Assembly: GCA_963807045.1 (NCBI GenBank)
Contig: CAWDZL010000002.1
Location: 1,664,118-1,728,117 of the forward strand
Source: an uncultured Actinomycetota bacterium
Lineage (GTDB): Bacteria; Actinomycetota; Actinomycetes; Actinomycetales; Cellulomonadaceae
Direction of reading: 5' to 3'
Length of the DNA: 64,000 nt
In this document: piece after piece, positions 4,543 to 44,801 of the stretch
How the letters are laid out: each line of letters opens with the position of its first letter
How positions within the stretch are numbered: the first letter of the stretch is position 1
Notes under the pieces: generated by a model
Told to the model about the DNA's origin: nothing
The model's database searches: none
What the model saw: the letters and a program-made list of their open reading frames with translations, nothing else
Translations under genes and position numbers: made by a program

Positions 4543-5934
4543 ATGAGCAGCATCGGGTGGCGGGTCCACGGCGACGGGCGGCGGGTCTTGCCGGGCGCGG
4601 TCGTGAACCCCGACGAGCGGCTGAGCTGGCCGCGCACCATCGGCATCGGCATGCAGCACGTCGTGGCCATGTTCGGCGCGACGATCCTCGTCCCGGCGAT
4701 CACGGGCTTCCCCGCCTCGACCACCCTGTTCTTCTCCGCCGTCGGCACGGTGACGTTCCTGATCCTCACCGGCAACCGCCTGCCCAGCTATCTCGGCTCC
4801 TCGTTCGCGTTCATCGCGCCGGTGGGCGCAGCGATGGCCGACGGCGGGATGTCGGTCGCGCTCGGCGGCATCATGACCGCGGGCCTCGTCCTGGCGGCGG
4901 TCGGCCTGGTCGTGCACCTGTGGGGCGCGCGCTGGATCGACGCCGTGATGCCCCCGATCGTCACAGGCACGATCGTCGCGCTCATCGGCATCAACCTCGC
5001 GCCCGCCGCCTGGAACAGCGTGAAGCTGGCGCCGTGGACGGCGATCATCACCATCGCCGCGATCGCGTTCGTCACCGTGTTCTTCCGCGGGATGCTCGGG
5101 CGGCTCGCGATCCTCGTGGGCGTCGTCGTCGGCTACGTCGCGGCGGTGCTGCAGGACCAGGTGAGCTTCGACGCCGTCAAGGAGGCCGCGTGGGTCGGCC
5201 TGCCCGACTTCACGACGCCGACGTTCGACGCCGGCAAGCTCGGCATCTTCCTGCCCGTCGTGTTCGTCCTCATCGCCGAGAACGTCGGCCACGTGAAGTC
5301 GGTCGCCGCGATGACCGGCAAGAGCTACGACGACCTCACCGGCCGCGCGTTGCTGTCCGACGGCATCGCGACGACCCTCGCGGGCCTCGGCGGCGGCTCC
5401 GGCACGACGACGTACGCCGAGAACATCGGCGTCATGGCGGCGACCAAGGTGTACTCGACGGCCGCCTACTGGGTCGCCGCGGCGACGGCGCTGCTGCTGA
5501 GCCTCTCCCCGAAGTTCGGCGCGCTGGTCGCGACCGTCCCGGCCGGCGTCCTCGGCGGTGCCGGCACGGTCCTGTACGGGATGATCTGCATCCTCGGCGC
5601 CCGCATCTGGGTGCAGAACCGCGTGAGCTTTGCCGACCCCGTGAACCTGACGACGGCCGGCGTCGGCCTGATCATCGCCGCGGCGGACTTCCAGTTCGTC
5701 ACCGACGGCGGCCTGGAGTTCAAGGGCATCGCGATCGCCACTGCTGCGGTCCTCGTGATGTACCACGGCATGCGAGCCGTCGCGAAGTGGCGGGGCACGC
5801 ACATCGAGGCGGCCACGCCTGCGTCCGTGCCGGGCGGCACGGAGCTCGAGGCCGCCGACGACGCCGCGAAGCCCGCTGCTGCCGACGCGGCGACGCCGGC
5901 CGCCGACGACGTCGCGGAGCCGGTCGCGGACTGA
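4543..5934 (+). CDS. NCS2 family uracil/xanthine permease
   Basis: A 463-aa polytopic protein with NCS2 signature regions. GAGGGAG lies 8 nt upstream of ATG 4543. Confidence 0.85.
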   Translation: MSSIGWRVHGDGRRVLPGAVVNPDERLSWPRTIGIGMQHVVAMFGATILVPAITGFPASTTLFFSAVGTVTFLILTGNRLPSYLGSSFAFIAPVGAAMADGGMSVALGGIMTAGLVLAAVGLVVHLWGARWIDAVMPPIVTGTIVALIGINLAPAAWNSVKLAPWTAIITIAAIAFVTVFFRGMLGRLAILVGVVVGYVAAVLQDQVSFDAVKEAAWVGLPDFTTPTFDAGKLGIFLPVVFVLIAENVGHVKSVAAMTGKSYDDLTGRALLSDGIATTLAGLGGGSGTTTYAENIGVMAATKVYSTAAYWVAAATALLLSLSPKFGALVATVPAGVLGGAGTVLYGMICILGARIWVQNRVSFADPVNLTTAGVGLIIAAADFQFVTDGGLEFKGIAIATAAVLVMYHGMRAVAKWRGTHIEAATPASVPGGTELEAADDAAKPAAADAATPAADDVAEPVAD

Positions 5935-10716: not shown

Positions 10717-11352
10717 ATGATCATCTTCGGCCTGCGGGTGCTGAGGAAGCTTCTGGGCACCGGCGTGTTCCACTGCCCGCGGTGCGGGCGCGACTGCGCG
10801 TTCAAGCACCTGCGTGCGCGGCGGTGGTTCCACATCTTCTTCATCCCCCTGATCCCGCTGGACGACGTCGGCACCTACGTCGAGTGCCAGGCGTGCCGCG
10901 GCACGTTCGTCGACGCGGTGCTGAGCGCGCCGACGAACGCGCAGCTCGAGGAGGCCCTGGCCGTCGCCGCCCGGGCCGCCGTCGCGCACCTCGTGTCCCT
11001 GGCGCCCGGCCCGGAGGTCGAGGCGCGGGCGATCGCCCGCCTCGCAGGCGCGGCGCGCGTGGCGCCGGGGTACGACGCCGCAGCCCTGGCCGCAGACGTC
11101 GCCGCCTATGCCGCGCCGGACGCCGTCATGGCGCGGGTGCGGGCCCTTGGCCCCGTCCTCACCGCTGTCGGGCAGGAGGCGTTCCTGCGGCGCGTCGTCG
11201 TCGTGGCGGCGGCTCTGCCGGAGCGCGCCACTGCCAGCGCAACGCAGGCGGTGGACGCGTACGCCGAGGCGATCGGGGCGAGCCCGACCCTCGTCACCGG
11301 GCTGCGCGTCGCGGCCGCCCGCGACGAGGCGGGGCTGCCCGGGGAGCGTTGA
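10717..11352 (+). CDS. zinc-ribbon domain-containing hypothetical protein
   Basis: CPRCG...CQAC zinc-ribbon at the N-terminus followed by an Ala-rich domain. RBS GAGGGGGAG. Confidence 0.55.
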   Translation: MIIFGLRVLRKLLGTGVFHCPRCGRDCAFKHLRARRWFHIFFIPLIPLDDVGTYVECQACRGTFVDAVLSAPTNAQLEEALAVAARAAVAHLVSLAPGPEVEARAIARLAGAARVAPGYDAAALAADVAAYAAPDAVMARVRALGPVLTAVGQEAFLRRVVVVAAALPERATASATQAVDAYAEAIGASPTLVTGLRVAAARDEAGLPGER

Positions 11353-11370
11353 GCGGGGCCGGCGGGGCCC

Positions 11371-11871: not shown

Positions 11872-12073
11872 CGACGTCCTCTCCGTCCGGGCGCTGCCGT
11901 CGCGTTCCTACCGGCAGCGCTGTCCTCGCCAGTATCGCGCTCGGACCCCGACGCTCCGCTGCAGCGAAACGTGCGTATGGCGACGGGTTCGCGAGAGGCC
12001 GCCCCCGGTCCGCACGAACATGCACCCGCTGTGCGCGCGACAGTTGTGCGCACAGCGGGTGGACGCGCGCAGG

Positions 12074-12198
12074 GCGCGGCGTGGCGTGGCGGGGCGTGGC
12101 GTGGCGGGGCGTGGCGTGGCGGGGCGGGGCGTGGCGTGGCGGGGCGTGGCGCGGCGTGGCAGGGCGGGGCGGGGCGCGGCGGGGCGCGGCGTGGCAGG
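12074..12198. repeat. 15-bp tandem repeat GGCGTGGCGTGGCGG: about 4.5 near-perfect copies followed by degenerate copies
   Basis: Read directly in the sequence. The repeat is intergenic, between the heme-degrading gene and the small membrane protein. It translates as GVAWR repeats in one frame. Confidence 0.85.
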
Positions 12199-29902: not shown

Positions 29903-30886
29903 TCAGTCGGCAGTGGCGCCGCAGCCGGCGGCCGCCGGCTCGGTCCCGGCCTCCGCCGCGACCACGGCGAGGCCCTCCGGCGTCGGCGGCTCGGACTCGA
30001 CGGCCGGTGCGCGGCGCGAGGCGAGGGCGGATCCCGCGAGGACGAGCACGAACCCGGCCGCGGTGAGCCAGGTGATCGGCTCGTCGAGCACGATCGCGCC
30101 GGCCGCGACCGCCACCGCCGGGTTCAGGTAGGTGACGAGCGTGCTCCGCAGGGCGCCGACCTCGGCGACCAGGGCGAAGAAGAGCATGAGCGCCGCGGCG
30201 GTGCAGATCAGACCCAGCCCGACAGCGGACGCCGTGACGCTCGCCGACGGCCATCGGTCCGGAGCGTGGGCCACGCCCGGGACCGCGTAGATCGCGGTGG
30301 CCGTGAGCAGGCTGAGCGCGATGACGCCCGTGGCGGGCGCGTCGGCGAGGTGGCGCGCCATGATCACCGGCCCGATGGCGTAGCAGAGGATCACGACGGC
30401 GAGCTCCCCGACGGCCTGCGCCTCGCCGCCGCCGCTCGTCGCGCCGCTCTCGAAGCCGACCAGCAGCGCCACGCCCGCGAAGCCGATGCCCAGCCCGAGC
30501 GCCCCGCGCGCGCCGAGGTGCTCGCTGCGGCGGGTGACCAGGGCGATCACGACCCCGACGATCGGCACCCCGGCGATGAGCAGGCCGGTCAGCGAGCTGG
30601 GCAGGTGCCGCTCGGCGTCGGTCAGGAAGAACCACGGCAGCACGATCTCGATCACGGCGTAGACGACCACCGCGCGCCAGTGCCGCAGTGCCCCGGCGAG
30701 CGCGCCCCGGGAGACCGCGAGCGGCACCATGACGAGGGAGGCGATGACGACGCGCGACAGGACGAGCGTCGTCGGGTGCAGCTCGTCGACGGCGATCTTG
30801 ATCAGCAGGTAGGGGATGCCCCACGCGACGCCGAGCCCCGCGAACAGAAGGAACGCGCGGCTCGAGCGGTGGTCGGCAGAGGTCAC
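29903..30886 (-). CDS. EamA/DMT superfamily transporter
   Basis: Ten TM helices with two EamA repeats. GTG start at 30886. The upstream extension of the track ORF runs through palindromic element 1. Confidence 0.75.
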   Translation of the reverse strand: MTSADHRSSRAFLLFAGLGVAWGIPYLLIKIAVDELHPTTLVLSRVVIASLVMVPLAVSRGALAGALRHWRAVVVYAVIEIVLPWFFLTDAERHLPSSLTGLLIAGVPIVGVVIALVTRRSEHLGARGALGLGIGFAGVALLVGFESGATSGGGEAQAVGELAVVILCYAIGPVIMARHLADAPATGVIALSLLTATAIYAVPGVAHAPDRWPSASVTASAVGLGLICTAAALMLFFALVAEVGALRSTLVTYLNPAVAVAAGAIVLDEPITWLTAAGFVLVLAGSALASRRAPAVESEPPTPEGLAVVAAEAGTEPAAAGCGATAD

Positions 30887-30906
30887 CGGGCAACCCTGCG
30901 GACGTG

Positions 30907-31060
30907 CCCCCACCCCCGTCAACCCCGCCGTCCCCCCCGCCCCCCCGCGCGCAAAGTGGAGCGAACGGCACGCGACACGCTGGCGTGTCGGTGCCGTTCG
31001 CTCCACTTTGCGGATGGAGAGGGGGTCAGGTGAGGGTGGGGGGTGACGTGGGGGTCCAGT
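30907..31060. repeat. nested palindromic element, copy 1 (C-rich arm, then 30-bp stem hairpin GCAAAGTGGAGCGAACGGCACGCGACACGC/revcomp, then G-rich arm)
   Basis: Read in the sequence. The core is 30951-31011. The right arm overlaps the 3' end of the flotillin CDS. Confidence 0.85.
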
Positions 31061-32975
31061 TGCGGAGAGCACCCGTGAGGGTTGCGGCCAGGCCCGTGAT
31101 GGCGCCCGTGTCGTTCCCGCCCACCATCACGTCCGGCACGATCTTGACGTGCCCGTCCGCGACGGCCGCAGCGATCGCGACCGCCGACGTCGCCTGCTGC
31201 CCGATGGCGGCCACCTGGGCCTCGTAGCCCGCCGCCTTCGCGAGCCCGAGCGCCTCCGTCGCCTTCGCCTCGGCCAGACCGATCGCCCGACGGCGGTCCG
31301 CCTCGGCCTCACCGGTCTTGCGGACGAACGCCGCCTCGCCGTCGGCCTGCGCGGTGCGGGCCGAGGCCTCCGCCTTCTGGATCTCGACGTTGACGTTCGC
31401 CTTCGCGAGGTCCGTCTGCATGTCGGCGGTGCCGCGGACGCGCTCGAGGTCGACACGCACCTCCTGGGCGCGCTTCTGCTCCTCGTACGTGACCCGTTCC
31501 TGGTTCGCGATCTCACGCTGGGTGAGGACGGCGACCAGCTCCGGCGGGAAGATCACGTCCTGCACGTAGACGCCGCGTGTCTCCACCTCGTACCCGCTGA
31601 GGTACCCGGTGATGTACTGCTGCGCCTGCGCCTGCACGGTGTCGCGGGTCTCGATGAACTGCACGGCCGGCAGCTGCTGGAGGGCGTTGCGGAAGTAGTT
31701 GCCCACCGCGGACTGCAGCACCTCGTTGACCAGGTTCTGCATGGTGCCGACCATCGAGATGACCTTCGGTGCTCGGCTGTCCGAGACGTGGATCTGCACC
31801 TGCAGGTCGATGCCGAAGACGAAGCCCTCACGCGACTTGCCGTCGATCGGGCTCAGCGCTTCGTCGAGGTTGTGCGCCGCCGAGGTCGTGTTCGCCCAGT
31901 TCAGCGTGATGATCGACGTCGGGACGAGCTCCGCCGCGTAGACGCGCGGGTTGATCGCGAACTTGCCGGTGCGCAGCGGCTCGTTCCAGATGCCGCGGTG
32001 GCCGGGCCGCACGATGGAGCCGAACTTGAAGTCCGCCCCGGACGTGTCGACGGTCGGGAGACCGACGTACGCCTTGATGACGGCGACCTCGCCCTGCCGG
32101 ACGACGAGCATCGGCACCAGCTCGACACGCACCAGGAACGGGTTGAGCAGGTACGAGCCGTACAGCAGCGGGTCGTGCTGGAGGCCGATGCGGCCGCCGT
32201 TGTCCAGGAACGCCTGGTAGTCCTGGTAGTTGTTGTGGACCCCGTTCTTGCTGGACAGGATCGCCTCGATCTTCTCGCTCTCCGTCGCACCGGCGGCCTC
32301 GAGCGCGGCGACGTCCTCGAACCCGCCGAGACGGCTGGCGATGTCGCTGCCCTCGGGCGCCTCGCCCTCGAGCGTGGTCACGACGCCGATGACGTCCTGA
32401 CCCTGCTGGGGCGCGATCACCGTCACGCGGAGCTGCTGGGGGAGCAGGCCGAGCGACTCGGGCGACGTGACCTGGTGGCCGCCGGCCTGCTGGATGGGCA
32501 CGCCGTACAGGCGGCTGGCCGTGAGCACGACGAACGCCAGGGGGTGCAGCGGCAGCAGCGTGCCCGGGGGCAGCACGGGCCGCTGGATGCCCTTCTGGCC
32601 ACCCTCCGCGAGGAACCCTGCGAGGTCCGTGAAGTTGCCGAACGACGGCTTGTACGCGGCGCTCTTGGCGCCGATGGGCAGGGGAGCGCCGAGCTGGGCG
32701 ATGACGACGCCGATCTCGCCCGGGTTGACCTGCACCCACGGGTGCTTCGTCACCGAGAAGACGGGCCACAGCTTGAAGCGCAGGCCGGGCATGAGGAGGC
32801 GGGCCTGGTAGCCGGCTTCCCCGTTGAACGCGATGGCCTGGTCGCCCTTGAGGCGCCGGCCGAGCCGCTTGTTGACGAGACCGACCTCACTCGCGCCGAT
32901 GAAGCGGAATGACGCCAGGAGGACGAGGAGCACGACGGCTCCGGCAACGATCCCGGCGATGACGCCAGGTGTCAT
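31026..32975 (-). CDS. flotillin-like SPFH/band-7 protein (YqiK-like)
   Basis: A 649-aa protein with an N-terminal TM, an SPFH domain, and a long EA-rich coiled coil (flotillin region). The C-terminal PT-rich tail is encoded by the repeat arm. Confidence 0.8.
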   Translation of the reverse strand: MTPGVIAGIVAGAVVLLVLLASFRFIGASEVGLVNKRLGRRLKGDQAIAFNGEAGYQARLLMPGLRFKLWPVFSVTKHPWVQVNPGEIGVVIAQLGAPLPIGAKSAAYKPSFGNFTDLAGFLAEGGQKGIQRPVLPPGTLLPLHPLAFVVLTASRLYGVPIQQAGGHQVTSPESLGLLPQQLRVTVIAPQQGQDVIGVVTTLEGEAPEGSDIASRLGGFEDVAALEAAGATESEKIEAILSSKNGVHNNYQDYQAFLDNGGRIGLQHDPLLYGSYLLNPFLVRVELVPMLVVRQGEVAVIKAYVGLPTVDTSGADFKFGSIVRPGHRGIWNEPLRTGKFAINPRVYAAELVPTSIITLNWANTTSAAHNLDEALSPIDGKSREGFVFGIDLQVQIHVSDSRAPKVISMVGTMQNLVNEVLQSAVGNYFRNALQQLPAVQFIETRDTVQAQAQQYITGYLSGYEVETRGVYVQDVIFPPELVAVLTQREIANQERVTYEEQKRAQEVRVDLERVRGTADMQTDLAKANVNVEIQKAEASARTAQADGEAAFVRKTGEAEADRRRAIGLAEAKATEALGLAKAAGYEAQVAAIGQQATSAVAIAAAVADGHVKIVPDVMVGGNDTGAITGLAATLTGALRNWTPTSPPTLT

Positions 32976-33140
32976 GGTGATGCACCGATCCTTCAGTCAG
33001 GTGTGCGCCTCGTGGCGCGCCCCGAGAGTGTGGCACCGAGATCATCCGCCGCGCGGGCCTTTCCGGGAGCCGGCGGACACCCTCCCGGGAGCCGGACGCC
33101 GCCCTTCCGGGAGCCGGACAAGCCCGATCCGTGAGCCGGA

Positions 33141-33268
33141 CGGGGGAGTCCCTCCTCTCCCCGCGGTTCCTCACGCAAAGTGGAGCGAAGTGCACCGACA
33201 CGCCAGGCGTGTCGGTGCACTTCGCTCCACTTTGCGGACGAAGGGGGGTGGGGGGCTAGGGGTGGGGG
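33141..33268. repeat. nested palindromic element, copy 2 (perfect 30-bp stem GCAAAGTGGAGCGAAGTGCACCGACACGCC/revcomp)
   Basis: Core at 33175-33235. The G-rich arm encodes the C-terminal HVPHP of the ABC ATPase. Confidence 0.85.
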
Positions 33269-33834
33269 ACGTGGACGAGCGGGGCGGCCAGGGCGTCGGC
33301 GTCGGCGCGTTCGTGGGTGACCAGCAGCATCGTGCGGCCGCCGTGGGCCTCGCGCAGGTGCGCCACCGCAAGCTCGCGCGAGGCGACATCGAGCCCCGCG
33401 AACGGCTCGTCGAGCACCGTGAGCTCGGCGCGGACCAGCAGTGCGCGGGCCAGCGCCACCTTGCGCCGCTGCCCGCCGGACAGCTCCCGCACGGGCTTGC
33501 GCAGCGCGTCGTCGTCCAGGCCGAGCGCCCGCAGCTCGGCGACCACGGCCTCGGCGTCGGCGGCCCGACCCAGCACCAGGCGCACGTTGCGCACGGCGCT
33601 GAGCTGACCGCACAGCCGGTCCTCCTGGAACGCCGCCGCCCGTCGCCGCGGAACCCCGCGCACCTCGCCGGCGTCGGGCGTCTCGAGGCCCAGCAGGAGC
33701 CGGCCGATCGTCGTCTTGCCGCTGCCGTTGGGACCCATCAGGGCCGTCACGACGCCGTCGGGCAGCGTCAGGTCCAGCCCGTCGAGGACCACCTGGTCGC
33801 CGTAGCGCTTCGTCACCCCGCGCAGCTCGATCAC
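33256..33834 (-). CDS. ABC transporter ATP-binding protein (NitT/TauT-like)
   Basis: GPNGSGKTT, LSGGQRRK, LDEPFAGLD. Its GTG start overlaps the permease stop (GTGA). Confidence 0.8.
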   Translation of the reverse strand: MIELRGVTKRYGDQVVLDGLDLTLPDGVVTALMGPNGSGKTTIGRLLLGLETPDAGEVRGVPRRRAAAFQEDRLCGQLSAVRNVRLVLGRAADAEAVVAELRALGLDDDALRKPVRELSGGQRRKVALARALLVRAELTVLDEPFAGLDVASRELAVAHLREAHGGRTMLLVTHERADADALAAPLVHVPHP

Positions 33835-34664
33835 GCCGCCGCCTCCGTCCCGGAGGGGGGCGCGACCGGCGTCGGGCGCCCAACGGCCAGTCGTCGCTCG
33901 GCGCGGCCCAGCAGCGCGACCAGGCCCTTCTCGAACCCGTAGCTCGCGGCGATGATCACGGCGGTCCAGGCGAACAGGTCGGCGCTGGAGAGGAAGAGCT
34001 TCGCCTCGTAGAGGCGTTCGCCGATGCTCCCGTCGGGCAGCCCGATCACCTCCGCCGCGACGCCGCTCTTCCAGGCGAGCCCGACGCCGAGGCGGCACGC
34101 GGCGAGGAAGAAGGGCAGCACGGCGGGCACGTCCACGGCGGTGACCCGCCGCACGAGCGGCACCTCGAAGACCGTCGCCATCTCCAGGAGCGCGCGATCG
34201 CGGTGCCGGATGCCCTCCAGCACGGTGACGTACGCGACCGGCAGCACCATCAGGAACGAGGTGATCGCGGCGAGCTTGCCGCTGTCGGCCACGAGCAGCA
34301 CCAGGATGATGAAGCTGACGACGGGCGCCGCGCGCACCGCGACGAGGAACGGCGTCAGCAGGGCGTCGGCGACCCGCGACCAGGCGGCGAGGGCCGCGAG
34401 CACGACGCCGACCGCCACGGCGAGCGCGAAGCCCACCGTGATGCGCGCGAACGAGAACCACACCGTGGACCAGAAGTCCGCCGTCGGCACGAGGTCGACG
34501 AGCCGCTCCGCGACGTCAGCAGGCGGGGCGAAGAGGAAGTCGTGCCCCACCCAGGCCGCGACGAGCTGCCAGACGGCCAGCCAGAACACGACGACCCCCA
34601 GGAGGCGCAGTGCCCCCCGGGGGTCGCGACGTGTGCGACGGTCAGCCGGCGAAGTAGAAGTCAT
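33831..34664 (-). CDS. ABC transporter permease (NitT/TauT-like)
   Basis: Six TM helices. The start (Met 34664 versus 34682) is uncertain. Confidence 0.7.
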   Translation of the reverse strand: MTSTSPADRRTRRDPRGALRLLGVVVFWLAVWQLVAAWVGHDFLFAPPADVAERLVDLVPTADFWSTVWFSFARITVGFALAVAVGVVLAALAAWSRVADALLTPFLVAVRAAPVVSFIILVLLVADSGKLAAITSFLMVLPVAYVTVLEGIRHRDRALLEMATVFEVPLVRRVTAVDVPAVLPFFLAACRLGVGLAWKSGVAAEVIGLPDGSIGERLYEAKLFLSSADLFAWTAVIIAASYGFEKGLVALLGRAERRLAVGRPTPVAPPSGTEAAA

Positions 34665-35685
34665 CGCCCGGCATCGTCCCACCGACCGAGGCGGGGTCGG
34701 CGTCGAACAGCACCTTCAGGTACCCACCGAGCGTCGTCTTCAGCTCCGCGCCGCCGATGAACGTGATGTGCGAGCCCGGGATCGCCTTCTCGGCGACCGG
34801 GGCCGCGGGCACGATGCCGGCGTCGGCGATGAGCTTCGCCGCCTCGGCGGGGTTGTCGTTCGTGAACTCCGTGGAGGCCTCGTAGTCGGTGAGGAACTGC
34901 GCGAAGGCCTCCGGGTTCTCCTCGATGAACTGCGTGCGGGCGACGACGACGCCGGTCACCAGCGCGGAGTCCTTGGCGACCGCGTCCCACTCGTCGGTGA
35001 GGCTGAGGGCCGTGCGGACCGCGGGGTTCTGCGTCTGCACGACCGTGGCGAACGGCTGGGGCAGCATCGCGATGGTCCCGGGTGCGCTGGCCAGGACGGA
35101 GGCGACCTCGGTGTGCTCGCTGCGGTAGTCGACGGTCACGTCGACGCCCGGCTCGAGGCCGTTGCTGCGCAGGATGTAGTCGAGGACGTACTCCGGCGAG
35201 GCGCCCTTGCCGGACGCGACGATCGTCTTGCCCCTGAGGTCGGCGACGCTCTGCACGGTGTCGCCCGACTCGAGGATGTCCATGACGCCGAGGGTGTTGA
35301 TCGCGGCGACCTGCACCGCGGCGCCGTCGTCGGTGAGCGTCTTGTTGTAGAGGACGGCGGCGAGGTTGGCGGGGACCATCGCGACGTCGGCCTTGCCCTG
35401 CACGACGAGCGGGACGATCTCGTCCGGGCTGCCGTACATCGTGACCTGGTAGTCCTCGGCGGCCTGGCCCGTCGTCGCCTGGTCCATGAGGTGGACGAGC
35501 CCCATCGTCGTCGGGCCCTTGAGGGACGCGATGCGGATGGTGGTGGGCTCCGCGGGCGTGGTGGCCGCGGCCTCGGCGTCGGGGGTGGTGCTCGGCGTTG
35601 CGGCGGGCTCGGTCGCGGAGCTGCAGCCGGCGAGCAGGGCTGCGACGGCGACGACGCCGGTCAGGACGCGAGAGATGCGCTTCAC
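34642..35685 (-). CDS. ABC transporter substrate-binding lipoprotein (NMT1/THI5-like)
   Basis: Signal peptide with lipobox LAGC. A periplasmic binding fold. Confidence 0.8.
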   Translation of the reverse strand: MKRISRVLTGVVAVAALLAGCSSATEPAATPSTTPDAEAAATTPAEPTTIRIASLKGPTTMGLVHLMDQATTGQAAEDYQVTMYGSPDEIVPLVVQGKADVAMVPANLAAVLYNKTLTDDGAAVQVAAINTLGVMDILESGDTVQSVADLRGKTIVASGKGASPEYVLDYILRSNGLEPGVDVTVDYRSEHTEVASVLASAPGTIAMLPQPFATVVQTQNPAVRTALSLTDEWDAVAKDSALVTGVVVARTQFIEENPEAFAQFLTDYEASTEFTNDNPAEAAKLIADAGIVPAAPVAEKAIPGSHITFIGGAELKTTLGGYLKVLFDADPASVGGTMPGDDFYFAG

Positions 35686-35833
35686 TGGGTCCTCGTTTCT
35701 CGGCGACCGACCGCCGGTCGGCGCCGGCGGTGGCGGGGTGGCTGCGCCGCCGCGAATTGGCCCGACGCGCGCCGCCGAAACCGACGTTACGGGCGTAGTC
35801 GTCCCATCACCGCGGACTTCCGACCCACCCGCT

Positions 35834-36012
35834 GCCCGCCCCTCTCTCCCCCCGCCCCGCCCCTCTCCCCACCCCAGCCGCGAGCGCTGCCACGGCGCGC
35901 GAGAACTGCCGTCTGGACGGCAGCGTTCGCGTGCCGTAGCAGCGCTCGCGGCTGGGGTGGGGCGGGGGGGAGGGGCGGGGGGTTACGGGGTGGGTGCGGG
36001 TCGGGGGCGGCG
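35834..36012. repeat. nested palindromic element, copy 3 (about 180 bp; C-rich arm, CGCGAGCGCTGCC...GGCAGCGCTCGCG core, G-rich arm)
   Basis: Read in the sequence. The arms are imperfect inverted copies of each other. The right arm supplies the C-terminal codons of the F420 reductase. Confidence 0.8.
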
Positions 36013-36639
36013 GGCGGACGCGAGGTCGGTGCGCAGCTCCTCGGCGGTGCGGCGCGGACCGTAGCCGGGGGTGTCCGGCTGGATGCGCCAGCCCTCCGCG
36101 AGGCCGTCGAGCTCCACGGTGTCGAACCCGAGCGCGTCGATCAGCTCGGCGACGGCCCGGCGCGCGTCGGCGTCGTCGGCGGCCACCACGAGCGCGCGGC
36201 GCCCCGGCGTGCCCGACGGCGTCGCGTGCTCGGTGAGGTCGGCCGCGGTGATGTGGTTGAACGCCTTCACGACGACGGAGCCCGTCAGGCGCTGCTGGAG
36301 CAGCTCGGCGGAGGTGATGCTCTCTTCGTCGAGCTCCGGGATGTGCCCGTCGCGCTGCCAGTAGTAGTTGTTCGTGTCGATCACGATCTTGCCGGCGAGG
36401 GGCTCGACCGGGACGGTGCCGATGGCGTGCAGGGGGATGGTCACGACGGCGAGGTCCGCGGCCTCGGCTGCCTCCCGTGGTGTCCCGGCCCGCGCGTGGT
36501 CGCCCAGCTCGTCGACGAGGTCCACCAGGGTGTGTGGTCCGCGGGAGTTGCTCAGGACGACGTCGTAGCCGTTCGCGACGGCCAGGCGCGCGAGCTGGGA
36601 GCCGATGTGGCCGGAGCCGATGAGTCCGATTGTGGTCAT
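35983..36639 (-). CDS. NADPH-dependent F420 reductase (Npd-like)
   Basis: N-terminal Rossmann motif (MTTIGLIGSGHIGSQLARLAVANGYDV) and F420 reductase-like overall sequence. Confidence 0.7.
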   Translation of the reverse strand: MTTIGLIGSGHIGSQLARLAVANGYDVVLSNSRGPHTLVDLVDELGDHARAGTPREAAEAADLAVVTIPLHAIGTVPVEPLAGKIVIDTNNYYWQRDGHIPELDEESITSAELLQQRLTGSVVVKAFNHITAADLTEHATPSGTPGRRALVVAADDADARRAVAELIDALGFDTVELDGLAEGWRIQPDTPGYGPRRTAEELRTDLASARRPRPAPTP

Positions 36640-36705: not shown

Positions 36706-36806
36706 GCCCCTCCCGCGAGCGCTGCCGTCTCACGCGAGCGCTGCCGGGTGGATGGCAGCGCTCGCGTGAGACGGCAGCGCTCGGCGGAGGGGGGCGGGGG
36801 CGCGGG
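36706..36806. repeat. nested palindromic element, copy 4 (about 40-bp stem; shares CGCGAGCGCTGCC with copy 3)
   Basis: Lies in the divergent intergenic region between the F420 reductase and the alpha/beta hydrolase. Confidence 0.8.
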
Positions 36807-37647: not shown

Positions 37648-37797
37648 CTACTTCGCAGAGCTGGTCTTGACCCTGGAGATCGACGCGGGCGGGGGCCGCA
37701 GGCCGCCCTTCGGGGACTTGCCCGCCGGGTATCCACCGCGGAAGGTGTCGCCGCTCGACTTCTCGGTGGTCGACGACCGCCGCTTCTTGTCGCTCAT
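37648..37797 (-). CDS. small basic Ser/Thr/Lys-rich protein (49 aa)
   Basis: ATG 37797 preceded by GGAAGGGAG. The sequence is low-complexity, so this is a weak call. Confidence 0.3.
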   Translation of the reverse strand: MSDKKRRSSTTEKSSGDTFRGGYPAGKSPKGGLRPPPASISRVKTSSAK

Positions 37798-39773: not shown

Positions 39774-39883
39774 CCCCGGCAGATCCCCGCCGCACAGTGG
39801 AGCGTTGCGTGGCCCGTTCGTTCCATCGCGGCGGTTCGACGGAGCGCAACGTTCCACTGTGCGGGTGTGCGGGGATTACTGGT
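39774..39883. repeat. nested palindromic element, copy 5 (stem CACAGTGGAGCGTTGCG / CGCAACGTTCCACTGTG with a 35-nt loop)
   Basis: Lies between the carbamate kinase 3' end and the amidohydrolase start. It shares the AGTGGAGCG core with copies 1 and 2. Confidence 0.75.
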
Positions 39884-40814
39884 GGATCGCGGTGCCGCTC
39901 TCGCCGCGCATGGCGAGCGGCGCCTTCTCCAGGGAGCAGATGACGGCGCGCCGCCCGGGCCCGCTCGCGGCGAACGTCATCGCGGCCTGCACCTTCGGCA
40001 GCATCGACCCGGAGCCGAGCTGCCCGGAGTCGATCAGCTGCTGCGCGGCGGCGAGGTCGAGATCGTCGAGGTCCCGCTGCTGCGGGGTTCCGAAGTCGAC
40101 CGCCACGCGGTCCACCGCGGTGAGGATGAACAGGTAGTCCGCCCCGACGGCCTCGGCGAGCGCCGCGGACGCGAAGTCCTTGTCGATCACCGCGGCCACC
40201 CCCCGGTGGTCGCCCTCCGGCGTCCGGACCACGGGGATCCCGCCCCCGCCGCACGCGACCACGATGAACTCGTGGTCGAGCAGGTTGAGGATCGAGTCCC
40301 GCTCGACGATCCGCACGGGACGCGGCGAGGCGACGACCTGCCGCCAGCCGCGACCGGCGTCGTCCACCATGACCAGGCCGGGCTCCGCCGCCATCATGTC
40401 GCGGGCCGTGGCCTCGTCGTAGAAGGCGCCGATCGGCTTCGTCGGGTGCGCGAACGCCGGGTCGTCCGGATCCACCTCCACCTGCGTGACCACGGATGCC
40501 ACGTGCCACGGCATATCCACCCGGCGCAGCTCGCGGGCGATGCCCTGCTGCAGGTGGTAGCCGATGTAGCCCTGGCTCATGGCGGTGCACTCGGGCAACG
40601 CCATCGGCGTGACCCGATCCGTGTGCCGGGCGGCGACGTCGAACGCGAGGTTGATCGCCCCCACCTGCGGCCCGTTGCCGTGGGACACGATGATCTCGTG
40701 CCCCTGGGCGATGAGCCCGACCAGGGCGGGCGCGGCGGCGTCGATCCGCTCGCGCTGCTCGGCAGCCGTGGTGCCCAGGGCGTTGCCGCCGAGGGCGATG
40801 ACGATGCGCGACAT
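39876..40814 (-). CDS. arcC: carbamate kinase
   Basis: MSRIVIALGGNALG N-terminus. ATG 40814 overlaps the upstream stop (ATGTCA). Confidence 0.85.
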   Translation of the reverse strand: MSRIVIALGGNALGTTAAEQRERIDAAAPALVGLIAQGHEIIVSHGNGPQVGAINLAFDVAARHTDRVTPMALPECTAMSQGYIGYHLQQGIARELRRVDMPWHVASVVTQVEVDPDDPAFAHPTKPIGAFYDEATARDMMAAEPGLVMVDDAGRGWRQVVASPRPVRIVERDSILNLLDHEFIVVACGGGGIPVVRTPEGDHRGVAAVIDKDFASAALAEAVGADYLFILTAVDRVAVDFGTPQQRDLDDLDLAAAQQLIDSGQLGSGSMLPKVQAAMTFAASGPGRRAVICSLEKAPLAMRGESGTAIHQ

Positions 40815-40815
40815 G

Positions 40816-41823
40816 TCAGAGGATCCCGGCGAGCAGCGCGTCGAGCTCGGCCTTGGCGGCGGCGACCTTGTGCGGGTTCGGCGTCTCCGGGCGCAGGAAG
40901 TACGCGAGGAGCGCGCGCTGGGCGGTGAGCCGGTTGCCGGCCTCGATGAAGGCGAGCGAGTAGTCCGAGTCGAGCACCTCGTCGGTGACCTCCTCGCCGC
41001 GCGTGGCGGGCAGGCAGTGCATGAACTGCGCACCCGGGCCGGCCGCGGCCATGAGCTCGGCGTTCACCTGGTAGGTCGGCATGAACGCCGCGAGCCGCTC
41101 GGCCTCGCCGAGCTCGGCCTCGTAGTCGCCGTACCAGACGTCCGTGTAGACGAAGTCGGCACCTTCGATCGCGGCGCGGTCGTCCGTCACGGTCATCGAG
41201 CCGCCGGAGACGGCGCAGTTGGCGCGCCCGATCTCCTGCATGGCGGGCTTGAGCTGGAAGGCCTTCGGTCCGTACTGCACGAAGCTCATGCCCATCTTGG
41301 TGGTGATCATCATGAGCGAGGCGCAGACCTGGGTGGCGTCGCCGACGAACACGACCTTGCAGTCCTCGAGCCGCTTCCCGGCGGGCAGGTTCTCGACCAT
41401 CGTGATGAGGTCGCCGATCTCCTGCGTGGGGTGGTTGTAGTCGGACATGCCGTTGAGCACCGGGATGGTCGCGTGCTTGGCCAGGTCCACGACGGTGTGG
41501 TGGCGGGCGACGCGCGCCATGACGACGTCGACGAGTCGCGACAGGACGCGTGCGGTGTCCTCCATGGACTCGTGGCCGCCGAGCTGGATCTGGCCGGGCG
41601 CGAGGTACTGCGCGTGCCCGCCGAGCTGCGACATCGCCGTCTCGAAGGAGACGCGCGTGCGGGTCGAGGACTGCTCGAAGATCATGCCGAGCGTGCGGCC
41701 CTGCAGCAGCGGCGGGAAGTAGCCCACTGCCACGCACTTCTTCAGCGTGATGCCGAGGTTGACGATGTCGAGCACCTCGGCCTTCGTGAGGTCCTGGGTG
41801 TCGATGAAGTGGCGGACGGTCAT
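40816..41823 (-). CDS. ptcA: putrescine/ornithine carbamoyltransferase
   Basis: STRTR carbamoyl-phosphate motif and HCLP motif. AAGGAG RBS. The genomic context (agmatine deiminase) favours putrescine carbamoyltransferase. Confidence 0.8.
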
Positions 41824-41966
41824 CGTCGGCTCCTTGGGTTCGTTCGTCTGGTTGAGGGCAGGGCGCATCGGCCGGACCGCTGGCGGGCGGCACGACTGCG
41901 CGGGAGGGGGAGTGCGTGGAGGCCCGTCCCGCCGGGCGGGGGGTGCCCGGCGGGACGGACGGTCGG

Positions 41967-43064
41967 TCAGCGCCCGGAGGGCTGCTGCTGGGTGATGCAG
42001 TGCACGTTGCCGCCGCCGAGGAGGATCTCCCGGCCGGGGACCGTGACGACGCGCCGCGGCGCGAACAGCTCCGTGTACGCGACGACGGCGTCGGCGTCGT
42101 GCGGGTCGTCGAAGACCGGCAGGACGACGATGTCGTTGCCGATGTAGGAGTTCACGTACGAGCCGGCGAGCCGGTCGCCGGCCTCGCGGGGCAGCGTGCC
42201 CTCGATGGAGTCGACACCGGCCGACTCCTCCTCGGTGATGAAGATCGGCCCGGGCTGGTGGATCTTCACGACCTGCAGCGCGCGGCCGTGCGCGTCGCGC
42301 GTCGCCTCGAGCACCTGCAGCGCGGCCAGGGACCGCTCGTACTGCGGGTCGCTCTCGTCGTCGGTCCAGGTCAGCATGACGACACCCGGCCGCACGAAGC
42401 GGCAGAAGTTGTCGACGTGGCCGTTGGTCTCGTCGAGGTAGACGCCGTACGGCAGCCAGACGACGACGTCGGCCCCCAGGTAGTCGCGCAGGTGCTGCTC
42501 GATCTCCTCGCGCGTCAGGTCGGGGTTGCGGCCGGCGGAGAGCAGGCACTCCTCGGTGACGAGGACCGTGCCCTCGCCGTCGACGTCGATCGAGCCGCCC
42601 TCGAGGACCAGCGGTGCCTTGTAGCGGTCGGTGCCCTCGATCTCGCAGACCTTGCGCGCGACGGCGTCGTCGGCGGCCCACGGGAAGTAGAGGCCGTCCA
42701 CGAGCCCGCCCCAGGCGTTGAAGTCCCAGTCGACACCCCGGACGTCGCCGGCGTCGTTCACGACGAACGTGGGACCGATGTCGCGCATCCAGGAGTCGTC
42801 GTTGGACATCTCGACGACGCGCACGACGTCGGGGAGCTCGCTGCGTGCGTTGTCGAACTGCCGGGCGGACACGGCGACCGTGACGCGCTCGGTCTGGGCG
42901 ATCGCCGTCGCGACGGCGGTGAAGGCGGCCTGGGCGGGCTTGGCGCCGAGGCGCCAGTTGTCGGGGCGCTCGGGCCAGACGAGCCAGCAGCCGCTGTGGT
43001 GCGCCCACTCGGCCGGCATGCGGTAGCCGTCCGCCGCGGGGGTGGAGTCGACGGTGTGGACCAT
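41967..43064 (-). CDS. aguA: agmatine deiminase
   Basis: Porphyromonas-type peptidyl-arginine deiminase family signatures (MPAEWAHH, catalytic Cys near C-terminal [13 protein letters not shown]). Confidence 0.85.
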
Positions 43065-43122
43065 GGTGAGCCTTTCTTGGGTCGGGGCGTCAGGCCGGGT
43101 CTCGGCCGCGCCCGGGGGAGTG

Positions 43123-44616
43123 TCAGTCGGTGGGGGCGTCGGCGAACTGCCGTGCGGTGTCCGGGTCCTCGCCGCGCTCGATGGCGCGCTGGCGGGTCCA
43201 GGCCGGGGACTTGAAGCAGAACCACTCCTGCAGGGCGACCGTCACGGCGAGGCCCAGGAGGATCGAGCCGGTGGTGCTCCACGAGTAGTCGTACGGGTTC
43301 CAGACGAAGAACACCGCGGCGAGCCCGAGCAGGACGGTCGGCACCCACGTGATCAGCGACGTCATGGTGCGGCCGCCGGGCACGCGGTAGGGCCGCGGGC
43401 GCTCGGGGTCGATGCGGCGCAGCTTGGCGAACGCCAGCATCATCACGATGTACGGCAGCAGGAAGATCACCGACGAGAACGCGAACAGGTTCCAGAAGAC
43501 GTCGTCGATCGCGCCGTCGGTCAGGGAGAACAGGCCGGCGTAGCCGACGGTGAAGACGGTGCCGACGATCGAGCAGAGCATCGCCGCGCCGACGGGGGTG
43601 CCGCGATCCGGGTGGACCCGGGCGAACACCTTGGGCAGGTCGCCCTGCTGGGCGGACTCCGCAGCGGCGAGGTTGGCGCCGATGGTCCACGGCACGAGGC
43701 ACGCGAAGAAGCAGAACAGCGCGCCGATGCCGAGGGCGGTCACGATGACGTGGGCGATGGTCGAGTCGCCGAAGCCGTGCTGGAGCGCGTCGATCAGGCC
43801 GGTGGTCTCGGAGATCTCGTCGGCGGGGTAGATGAGCTGCATGCCGACGGTGGCGATGAGGTAGAAGCCGCCGATGAGGACGCCCGCGATCGCGATGGTG
43901 CGGGGGACGTCGCGCTTCGGGTTCTCCATCTGCGTGGAGGCCGAGGACATGAGCTCGAAGCCGAGGAAGTTGTAGATGACGATCGGCAGGGCCGCGGCGA
44001 AGGCCGGCAGCGCGTCGGTCGGGAGCATGGTGCTCCAGGTCCAGTCGGTCGCGGAGCCGTTCTTGGTGGCGAAGATCCCGCCTGCGACGGCGAGCGCCAC
44101 GATCACGGCGATCGTGATGCCGGCGCCGACGTTGGAGACCCAGGTGCCGGTCTCGAGGCTGCGCGCGTTGACCCAGTAGTTGATCCAGATGAGCGCGACG
44201 GTGATGGCGATCTGGACCCAGAAGTTGAGGTCGCCGTCGAAGAACATCGACGAGATCGCGCCGGAGAACATCAGGTACACGCTGGGCACCCACAGCCCGA
44301 CGTTCACCCAGTACCACCAGGAGACGCGGCTGCCCCAACGGTTCCCGAAGGCCCGGACGACCCAGGCGTAGATGCCGCCGGCGTCGGGGTAGGCCGAGCC
44401 GAGCTCGGCGGTGACGAGCCCGTAGGGGACGAAGAAGGCAAGGATGATCAGGACGGTCCAGAAGATGGCCGTCGGTCCGACGGCGGCCGTGACCGTGAGC
44501 TGCGAGAGCAGCAGCATGGCGGCGACGGAGAACAGGACCATGTCGAACATGCGGAACGCCGGGCGGGCGGGGGTGGTGCCGCCGGGCGCCTGGGGGGAGT
44601 CGGTCTGAGCGGCCAT
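43123..44616 (-). CDS. APC family amino acid permease (putative agmatine:putrescine antiporter)
   Basis: Twelve TM helices with APC signature regions. ATG 44616 is in frame within the track ORF. Confidence 0.8.
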
Positions 44617-44697
44617 CGGTGCTCCTTTGCGTGTGCCGCTGGGTGGTGCATGCGCCCGAAGGGGGGCTGTGCGCGGCGGGTGCCCTCGGCATCCGTG

Positions 44698-44735
44698 TGT
44701 ACAGACGTACAACTTCGGTATGTACAAACGTACAA
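44698..44735. promoter_or_regulatory. two direct copies of TGTACA-N-ACGTACAA (TGTACAGACGTACAA and TGTACAAACGTACAA) upstream of the antiporter gene; candidate TetR (AguR-like) operator
   Basis: Read in the sequence. Each copy contains the TGTACA palindrome. Confidence 0.45.
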
Positions 44736-44801
44736 GTGGGGGCGATGGTGCCTAGGGACCAACGTCCCTCAGTGCTCTGGTGAGCGGGTGACTTCCGGCT
44801 C

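Follow-up and report, generated by a model that had tools for sequence, protein, structure and literature searches.

Palindromic repeats beside the 3' ends of neighbouring genes in a Cellulomonadaceae contig, and the short protein tails read from their flanks

Genes and palindromic elements at the locus

We analysed a window of 64,000 nucleotides (nt) from an uncultured Actinomycetota bacterium of the Cellulomonadaceae lineage (contig CAWDZL010000002.1, positions 1,664,118 to 1,728,117 of the forward strand). The window has a G+C content of 73%, and its proteins find their closest homologues in actinobacteria of the Actinotalea, Cellulomonas and Pengzhenrongella type. Between 29.9 and 36.6 kb the minus strand carries every gene, and three of these genes, encoding a flotillin, an ABC transporter ATPase and a protein resembling NADPH-dependent F420 reductases, end beside strong palindromic elements that we call E1, E2 and E3. 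The original prediction, made from this DNA alone, was that the G-rich arm of the adjacent element encodes the last codons of all three genes. Comparison with orthologues suggests that this is so for 6-7 codons of the flotillin gene and 6 of the reductase gene, a shorter overlap than the peptides first quoted, and for none of the ATPase.

On the plus strand each element has the same layout, a core between a C-rich tract on the left and a G-rich tract on the right (Table 1). The three C-termini and their stop codons are as first reported: translation of the open reading frames (ORFs) together with repeat and fold analysis places TGA (flotillin), TAG (ATPase) and TAA (reductase) each inside a plus-strand G-rich tract that adjoins a palindrome. 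E1 takes up the entire spacer from the flotillin gene to the ribosome-binding region of the EamA transporter gene and ends 17 nt from the EamA start; its left boundary was set by homology of the EamA leader with a related locus, L128, and its right boundary by alignment of the flotillin DNA. The 3' boundary of E3 was set by alignment of the conserved leader of the gene for the binding protein of the ABC importer, and its palindrome arms are 35835-35913 and 35916-35994. Two further copies, E4 and E5, lie upstream of the reductase gene and beyond. E4 is not at the 3' end of any gene and has two tandem GCGAGCGCTGCC units per arm, while the carbamate kinase gene next to E5 aligns over its full length with its orthologue in locus L001. 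An apparent extension of an M20 peptidase gene into E5, seen with tblastn, was rejected: the gapped alignment is spurious, and the gene starts at MTLLAQ, about 39759.

The palindromes of E1-E3 are not chance structures. In a sliding fold of all 64 kb, E1-E4 occupy ranks 1-4 among the most stable 120-nt windows. Folded as coding-strand RNA, E1 reaches -126 kcal/mol (z = -7.7), E2 -91 kcal/mol (z = -8.6) and E3 -183 kcal/mol (z = -12.7), and the core 15-mer of E1 and E2 occurs 4 times against 0.04 expected.

Table 1. Genes and palindromic elements between 29.9 and 39.9 kb of the window.
Feature	Coordinates	Strand	Description	Basis
EamA transporter gene	29903-30886	-		ORF, Pfam
E1	30904-31049		about 146 nt; C-rich 30904-30949; core 30950-31012 (GCAAAGTGGAGCGAA... 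family); G-rich 31013-31049	
Flotillin/SPFH (Band_7) gene	31026-32975	-	649 aa; end ...NWTPTSPPTLT*	ORF, Pfam
E2	33141-33255		about 115 nt; weakly C-rich 33141-33173; perfect 31+31 nt core palindrome 33174-33236; G-rich 33237-33255	
NitT/TauT-type ABC ATPase gene	33256-33834	-	192 aa; end ...LVHVPHP*	ORF, Pfam
ABC importer permease gene	33831-34682	-		
NMT1/THI5-like binding protein gene of the ABC importer	34642-35685	-		
E3	35827-36003		about 177 nt; C-rich 35827-35867; core about 35868-35962 (GCGAGCGCTGCC family); G-rich 35963-36003	
NADPH-dependent F420 reductase-like (F420-type NADP oxidoreductase) gene	35983-36639	-	218 aa; end ...ASARRPRPAPTP*	ORF, Pfam
E4	36707-36806		E3 core family; between the divergent starts of the F420 reductase (36639, -) and alpha/beta-hydrolase (36833, +) genes	
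Alpha/beta-hydrolase gene	start 36833	+		GC3 frame analysis, Pfam
E5	39790-39864		diverged E1/E2 family member (CCGCACAGTGGAGCG...); 11 nt past TAA, the native carbamate kinase stop	

Related loci are identified below by number. L125 is an independent ENA assembly of an organism that differs from the source of the window, and the Logan contig L126 is a second independent assembly of the same locus; L110 is a contig from a metagenome-assembled genome of Actinomycetes. Roughly the first 600 positions of L125 have a G+C content far below that of the remainder of the ENA scaffold, which suggests a chimeric scaffold end.

The flanks of the elements are compositional tracts

Because C-rich RNA pairs with G-rich RNA regardless of base order, pairing between the two flanks of an element can only be judged against shuffled controls, and we compared both the duplex energy and the arm identity with those of composition-matched shuffles. 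For E1 the duplex energy (z = -0.5) was matched by 298 of 1000 shuffles and arm identity gave p = 0.42. The flanks of E2 do not pair (z = +1.5), and its C-rich tract is single-stranded in the E2 fold. The flanks of E3 taken whole are borderline (duplex energy z = -2.8, reached by 6 of 1000 shuffles; identity p = 0.08), and for the coding part alone the pairing is not significant against shuffles. The flanks are compositional tracts and not specific inverted repeats, which removes the earlier description of the gene-overlapping stretches as arms of the palindromes in any sequence-specific sense. Whether a given codon belongs to the element or to the gene must therefore be decided from orthologues.

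Two arguments that would have by-passed the orthologues were rejected. The alignment of E1 with E2 (shared CCACGTC..CCCCCACCC, in different frames) might have been taken as proof that the arm in both ORFs is part of the element, and is ruled out by the native ATPase codons of locus L127 and by the shuffle controls. The outermost matches GGAC...GTCC and CCGACCC...GGGTCGG were considered as palindrome ends, and their distal partners turned out to be native conserved leaders, that of the EamA gene, which is common to L128, and that of the binding protein gene.

The ATPase end is native

The ATPase family has lengths of 190-198 aa throughout, and the window protein is normal in this respect. In L125 the ATPase is 85% identical, an E2-type element stands at the same place, and the protein ends in ...QLPHP* (CTC CCC CAC CCC TGA). 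In L127, where the ATPase is 71% identical and no element follows it, the protein ends in ...RLPHP*, encoded by the same fifteen bases as in L125 (CTCCCCCACCCCTGA). The position of the stop is the same in the window and in the relatives, i.e., in three lineages, with TAG in the window and TGA in the relatives. Because the element-free L127 has this ending as well, the C-terminus of the ATPase is native; E2 was inserted past the stop codon, with no new codons for the protein. The presence of the same tail at an element-free locus refutes, for this gene, the proposal that an element replaced the native 3' end.

The history of the E2 site can also be followed in a further relative, L122, whose ATPase is 78% identical. 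There the site is empty, and the spacer between the ATPase and flotillin genes consists of flotillin operator repeats only. The site is thus empty in L122 and in L127 (in the latter as seen in the ATPase 3' flank), and filled in L125/L126 and in the window.

The flotillin and reductase ends are replaced

For flotillin and the reductase, in contrast to the ATPase, the tails at element-free loci differ from those in the window, and the homology of both window tails to their orthologues ends precisely at the beginning of the element tract.

The closest flotillin homologues are 93-94% identical and 664-666 aa long, except for one of 650 aa with the same long tail, and they end in ...LRTWGPTPPAIAPTTPDVPLTPPDAATLS*. 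Homology at the DNA level is kept through TGG ACC CC and then lost; W-T-P is common to L132, and the next codon, ACG (Thr), to L001. What remains is 6-7 codons and the TGA (31026-31046/49), reading (T)SPPTLT*, which have no counterpart in the orthologues and lie within the E1 flank. Past the conserved W, the window protein has only 9 aa, which makes its tail the shortest in a set of 42 homologues with the W retained (median 25). The PQQ-like and 5'-nucleotidase genes that lie 3' of flotillin in L122 are absent from the window. The original prediction held that such replacement creates low-complexity tails rich in Pro and Thr. A tail rich in Pro, Thr and Ala is, however, present in every flotillin orthologue, and the event truncated a longer native tail of this kind and put a new end on it, rather than making one.

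Upstream of the flotillin gene, at 33062-33140, lie four copies of the inverted-repeat motif TCCGGGAGCCGGA with a spacing of exactly 22 nt. Every relative has this array in front of flotillin, no matter which gene lies next to it (L001 9826-9905, L122 10590-10680, L125 6700-6770, L004 9817-9860); it is probably an operator array that moves with flotillin.

The relatives of the reductase are 213-216 aa long and end in ...AARRPNET*, ...AARHPNDG* or ...AAVRPQP*. Homology to them ends past ARRP, and the new sequence, CGA CCC GCA CCC ACC CCG TAA (35983-36003, RPAPTP*), lies in the E3 flank. It stands in place of NET* or NDG* and makes the protein 3 aa longer on balance, which is within the natural length range. 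The codon usage is unusual: 2 of the 6 codons in this tail end in A, compared with 2.3% in ten confident genes, and TAA is a rare stop (p ~ 0.008, a binomial estimate). Downstream of the reductase gene, L122 and L127 have sigma-70 and DUF3303 genes and then the conserved leader of the binding protein gene; the window lacks both of these genes and has E3 exactly in the gap. Here the original reading is supported in a small way.

The leader that bounds E3 on the other side is itself conserved. It comprises about 150 nt upstream of the binding protein gene (35686-35826; GGGTCGGAAGTCCG...CGTCGGTTTCGGCGGCG...) and is kept in five loci with differing upstream neighbours, its positions in the relatives being L122 8023-8176, L127 8026-8179, L125 4030-4174 and L128 2783-2959. 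It has no Rfam match, and its RNAalifold consensus fold shows compensatory changes in 8 of 43 pairs; the leader is a candidate cis-regulatory RNA.

Gene order changes at the element-bearing junctions

The genes around the elements are arranged differently among relatives. In L001 and L004 the carbamate kinase gene is followed by flotillin; L122 has the order ATPase, flotillin, PQQ-like gene, and L127 the ATPase and then the PQQ-like gene; in L128 the ATPase is followed directly by EamA. Every such module boundary in the window between 30.9 and 39.9 kb bears an element copy. The agmatine deiminase cluster at 39876-44751, which comprises amino-acid permease, PAD_porph, OTCase and carbamate kinase genes, has syntenic counterparts at L001 5010-9762 and in L004. 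In those two loci flotillin comes directly after carbamate kinase; in the window the two are separated by 6.9 kb of DNA with E5 at one end and E2 at the other.

Two families of palindromic elements

The cores start with GCAAAGTGG.. or GCGAGCGCTGCC.. and are 62-95 nt long. E1, E2 and the L125 copy were used to build a covariance model, R1, which recovers E5 (34.8 bits, E = 7.7e-6) as well as half-copies at the contig ends of L110 and L126, and gave no other match in about 200 kb of related DNA. A second core family is common to E3 and E4. The inner stems of the cores vary while pairing is retained (CGGCAC in E1, GTGCAC in E2, CCTGTCG in L125), and cores are also found in two other actinobacterial assemblies. 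Scanning genome contigs with the 15-mer GCAAAGTGGAGCGAA gave 116 loci, nearly all of them single chance matches in unrelated phyla, the real one being L110 only; a 21-base gapped pattern gave one chance match among metagenome contigs, in a low-GC coding region. Rfam returned no match at the gathering threshold and, at E <= 1, only sub-threshold generic microRNA-hairpin matches, and BLAST found no plasmid match for the E1 and E3 cores.

No T-tract follows any of the elements, and the single match of a terminator scan (37764-37782) lies elsewhere. Because E4 sits between divergently transcribed genes, the elements are not simply terminators.

Several other observations concern the same kind of sequence. 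At L110 1-45 and L126 4057-4091 independent metagenome contigs stop in the middle of the palindrome, as contigs should where an element is present in several copies or hinders assembly in those genomes. A third palindrome of the same layout (C-rich flank, core, G-rich flank) lies between convergent genes at L127 11890-12010 and is also seen at L122 14160-14215; its apex in L127, CCGTCTGAACGGCAG, is nearly identical to the E3 apex, CCGTCTGGACGGCAG. The 5'-nucleotidase gene of L127 ends in ACC CCG TAA CCCC, similar to the ACC CCG TAA CCCCCC of the window reductase, through common origin or chance. In L128 the spacer between ATPase and EamA, which holds no flotillin gene, contains at 5470-5530 a short hairpin (GGAGCGAAA...TTTCGCT) resembling the outer stem of the E1/E2 core; it could be a decayed copy, and was not scored by the covariance model. 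Far from the elements, at 12073-12195, the window has a tandem repeat of GGCGGGGCGTGGCGT (about 8 copies, 87% matches), with more G-run clusters nearby at 11331-11367.

Discussion

Repeats at rearrangement junctions as the best explanation

To explain these data we favour, with a probability of roughly 0.6, lineage-specific, non-coding palindromic repeats situated at rearrangement junctions and similar to repetitive extragenic palindromes (REPs), miniature inverted-repeat transposable elements (MITEs) or the Tuberculosis Rho-independent terminator (TRIT); where a breakpoint fell in a dispensable protein tail, the ORF would read into the C-rich flank. Specifically, E1-E5 would be copies of two lineage-restricted families, each with a hairpin core, a C-rich 5' tract and a G-rich 3' tract, which were acquired at, or involved in, local rearrangements and which fill the spacers at junctions of modules with variable order. 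A copy landing just past a stop codon would leave the protein unchanged, as with the ABC ATPase and the carbamate kinase. If, on the other hand, the insertion or deletion breakpoint lies inside a dispensable, poorly conserved tail, the ORF would continue to the first in-frame stop in the C-rich flank, as with flotillin and the reductase. A C-rich strand can spell only CCN, ACC, CAC and CTC, and because such a flank encodes mostly Pro, Thr, His and Leu, with few stops, reading into it would give a short Pro/Thr-rich tail. The copies may have spread by transposition or by recombination, and by analogy with known repeats the hairpins may act on the mRNA as 3' stabilisers or as termination or attenuation signals.

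A number of points weigh against this explanation. There is no transposase, RAYT (REP-associated tyrosine transposase) or integrase among the approximately 20 ORFs annotated, and no clear target-site duplication, the only candidate being a possible CGGT at both ends of the element in L125, compared with an empty site that has diverged. Just five copies are seen in the window and three elsewhere, and the five in the window are confined to 9 kb, an odd distribution for a repeat that disperses at random. Neither E1 nor E3 occurs in any close relative compared that could date the events. At the flotillin end, moreover, the WTPT of the window resembles native WGPT/WTPG, so that the breakpoint can be placed only to within one or two codons, and there is some small probability that the short tail arose by mutation alone.

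Alternative explanations

A simple alternative is that composition alone is responsible: three native Pro/Thr-rich tails would happen to lie next to G-rich spacers, and no coding sequence would derive from an element. This is true of the ATPase, and the failure of the flanks to pair or match better than shuffles speaks for it. It also fits the Pro/Thr-rich tails of all flotillin orthologues and the normal lengths of the ATPase and reductase tails, and the 5'-nucleotidases next to the L127 and L122 hairpins end in ...TP* (ACC CCG TAA) at both loci. However, coincidence does not explain why all homology of the flotillin and reductase tails to their nearest relatives, in DNA as in protein, stops exactly at the tract, why the one is the shortest of 42 and the other contains rare codons, or why neither junction has the downstream neighbour genes, and we regard it as rather unlikely for the locus as a whole.

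The original prediction added that the hairpin might be coupled to translation termination. A terminating ribosome would then meet a stable stem at or over the stop codon, and the stem would tune the upstream gene through stalling and trans-translation, or gate transcription termination. Four of the five window copies, and those of L110, L125 and L127, do sit 0-45 nt past a stop, with the core of E1 starting 14 nt and that of E5 11 nt after it, and the TRIT hairpins of Mycobacterium begin at about -8 relative to the stop. Such coupling is possible, but the spacing from stop to core varies (11, 14, 19, ~20, 26 and 45 nt) and gives it no support; in addition, E4 lies in a divergent promoter region, U-tracts are lacking, and relatives have the same genes without the elements. 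As an account of why the elements are here it strikes us as unlikely.

We are more doubtful still that the palindromes are sites or scars of an undescribed recombination system by which individual genes and short operons are rearranged in a Cellulomonadaceae-like lineage, comparable to integron attC sites, with the altered tails as by-products of imprecise joining. The attraction of this idea is the copy at every module boundary from 30.9 to 39.9 kb: E5 and E2, of the same family, bracket the 6.9 kb segment that L001 and L004 lack, E2 and E1 bracket flotillin, which L128 lacks between ATPase and EamA, and flotillin is found in at least three different contexts among the relatives. The i-motif- or G-quadruplex-prone C-rich and G-rich flanks could form part of such a mechanism. 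On the other hand, the inner stems of E1 and E2 are each self-complementary yet different (CGGCAC and GTGCAC), with no sign of the hybrid arms expected from exchange at the apex; the elements contain no GTTRRRY/RYYYAAC core sites, the annotated ORFs include no integrase or recombinase, and the ATPase-flotillin junction is kept in L122 without an element.

Finally, long G and C runs are error-prone and the assemblies of relatives break inside the core, but an assembly or sequencing artefact (fold-back chimeras or G/C homopolymer errors) is highly improbable given the same element at the same locus in the two independent assemblies of another organism (L125 from ENA, L126 from Logan), source-assembly proteins of the same length in the database, and an ATPase stop position conserved in three lineages.

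Consequences for annotation and for the evolution of C-termini

The C- and G-rich flanks are almost free of stops, so that ORFs run into or through the elements, and C-termini and starts called near them deserve checking. Because these tracts are nearly stop-free, the minus-strand frames of EamA (29903-31126) and of the binding protein (34642-35982) stay open upstream through E1 and E3, the latter in phase with the TAA of the reductase, and start calls based on the longest ORF would be badly over-extended at both genes. For protein evolution, repeats at rearrangement breakpoints with the properties proposed here would provide a clean, if small, case of a dispensable tail being rewritten, with Pro/Thr-richness following by necessity from the composition of the flank. 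The empty-site control is instructive in the same context, as one of three look-alike cases proved purely native.

Comparison with known systems

The phenomenon as such is already known from several repeats, including TRIT, REP, the ERIC/RU (enterobacterial repetitive intergenic consensus/repeat unit) family and the Rickettsia palindromic elements (RPEs), while the element families at this locus appear undescribed. Two classes can be set aside on their defining features. Intrinsic (Rho-independent) terminators have a U-tract, which is lacking here, and E4 is not at a 3' end; and integron attC sites would show RYYYAAC/GTTRRRY motifs, of which none was found on reading the elements, which also have no hybrid arms, nor is there an integrase in the scanned ORFs.

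The REPs and bacterial interspersed mosaic elements (BIMEs) of Escherichia coli are 20-40 nt long, have a conserved GTAG head, occur in hundreds of copies per genome in association with RAYTs, and stabilise the mRNA upstream of them. Those that lie no more than about 15 nt from a stop codon reportedly lower translation via ribosome stalling and transfer-messenger RNA (tmRNA). The present elements resemble them as extragenic palindromes just past stops within operons, and REPs are a plausible model for the proposed coupling; unlike REPs, the cores here are 62-95 nt long and have no GTAG head, and no RAYT is found among the scanned ORFs of the 64 kb. RPEs are inserted in frame inside genes, with the ORF going on beyond them, and the Correia elements of Neisseria have defined terminal inverted repeats and a TA duplication. 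Both show that palindromic repeats are tolerated in, or at the ends of, coding genes and can supply peptide segments or stops. In the window, unlike with RPEs, both affected ORFs end inside the flank, 6-7 codons past the breakpoint, and the terminal repeats and TA duplication of Correia elements are not seen.

TRIT is a sequence-conserved palindromic hairpin, reported only in the genus Mycobacterium, with 147 copies at gene termini; it typically begins in the coding sequence at about -8 from the stop, has no classical U-tract and, being palindromic, is bidirectional (Gardner et al., 2011; PMC3152330). The elements described here are likewise actinobacterial, lineage-restricted, conserved palindromic hairpins at several dispersed loci without a U-tract. 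However, their cores start +11 to +45 nt past the stop, only the low-complexity C-rich flank overlaps codons, and, compared by description, they differ from TRIT in their longer cores (62-95 nt), their C-rich and G-rich flanks and the copy between divergent genes.

A precedent for a changed protein end is found in enterobacteria, where MITE-like intergenic repeats, ERIC/RU-1, RU-2 and RU-3, have joined onto conserved genes at their 3' ends, so that the normal stop is lost and residues encoded by the repeat are added (Delihas, 2007; PMC2759123). In both systems a repeat stands at the 3' end of a gene and residues follow beyond the conserved part of the protein. The RU elements add tens of residues that form a recognisable peptide, compared with 6-7 low-complexity residues here, where one protein has even become at least 15 aa shorter than its closest orthologues; taxon and sequence differ as well. 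What the elements of the window do share with MITEs in general is the occurrence of empty and filled sites among related genomes, as seen for E2.

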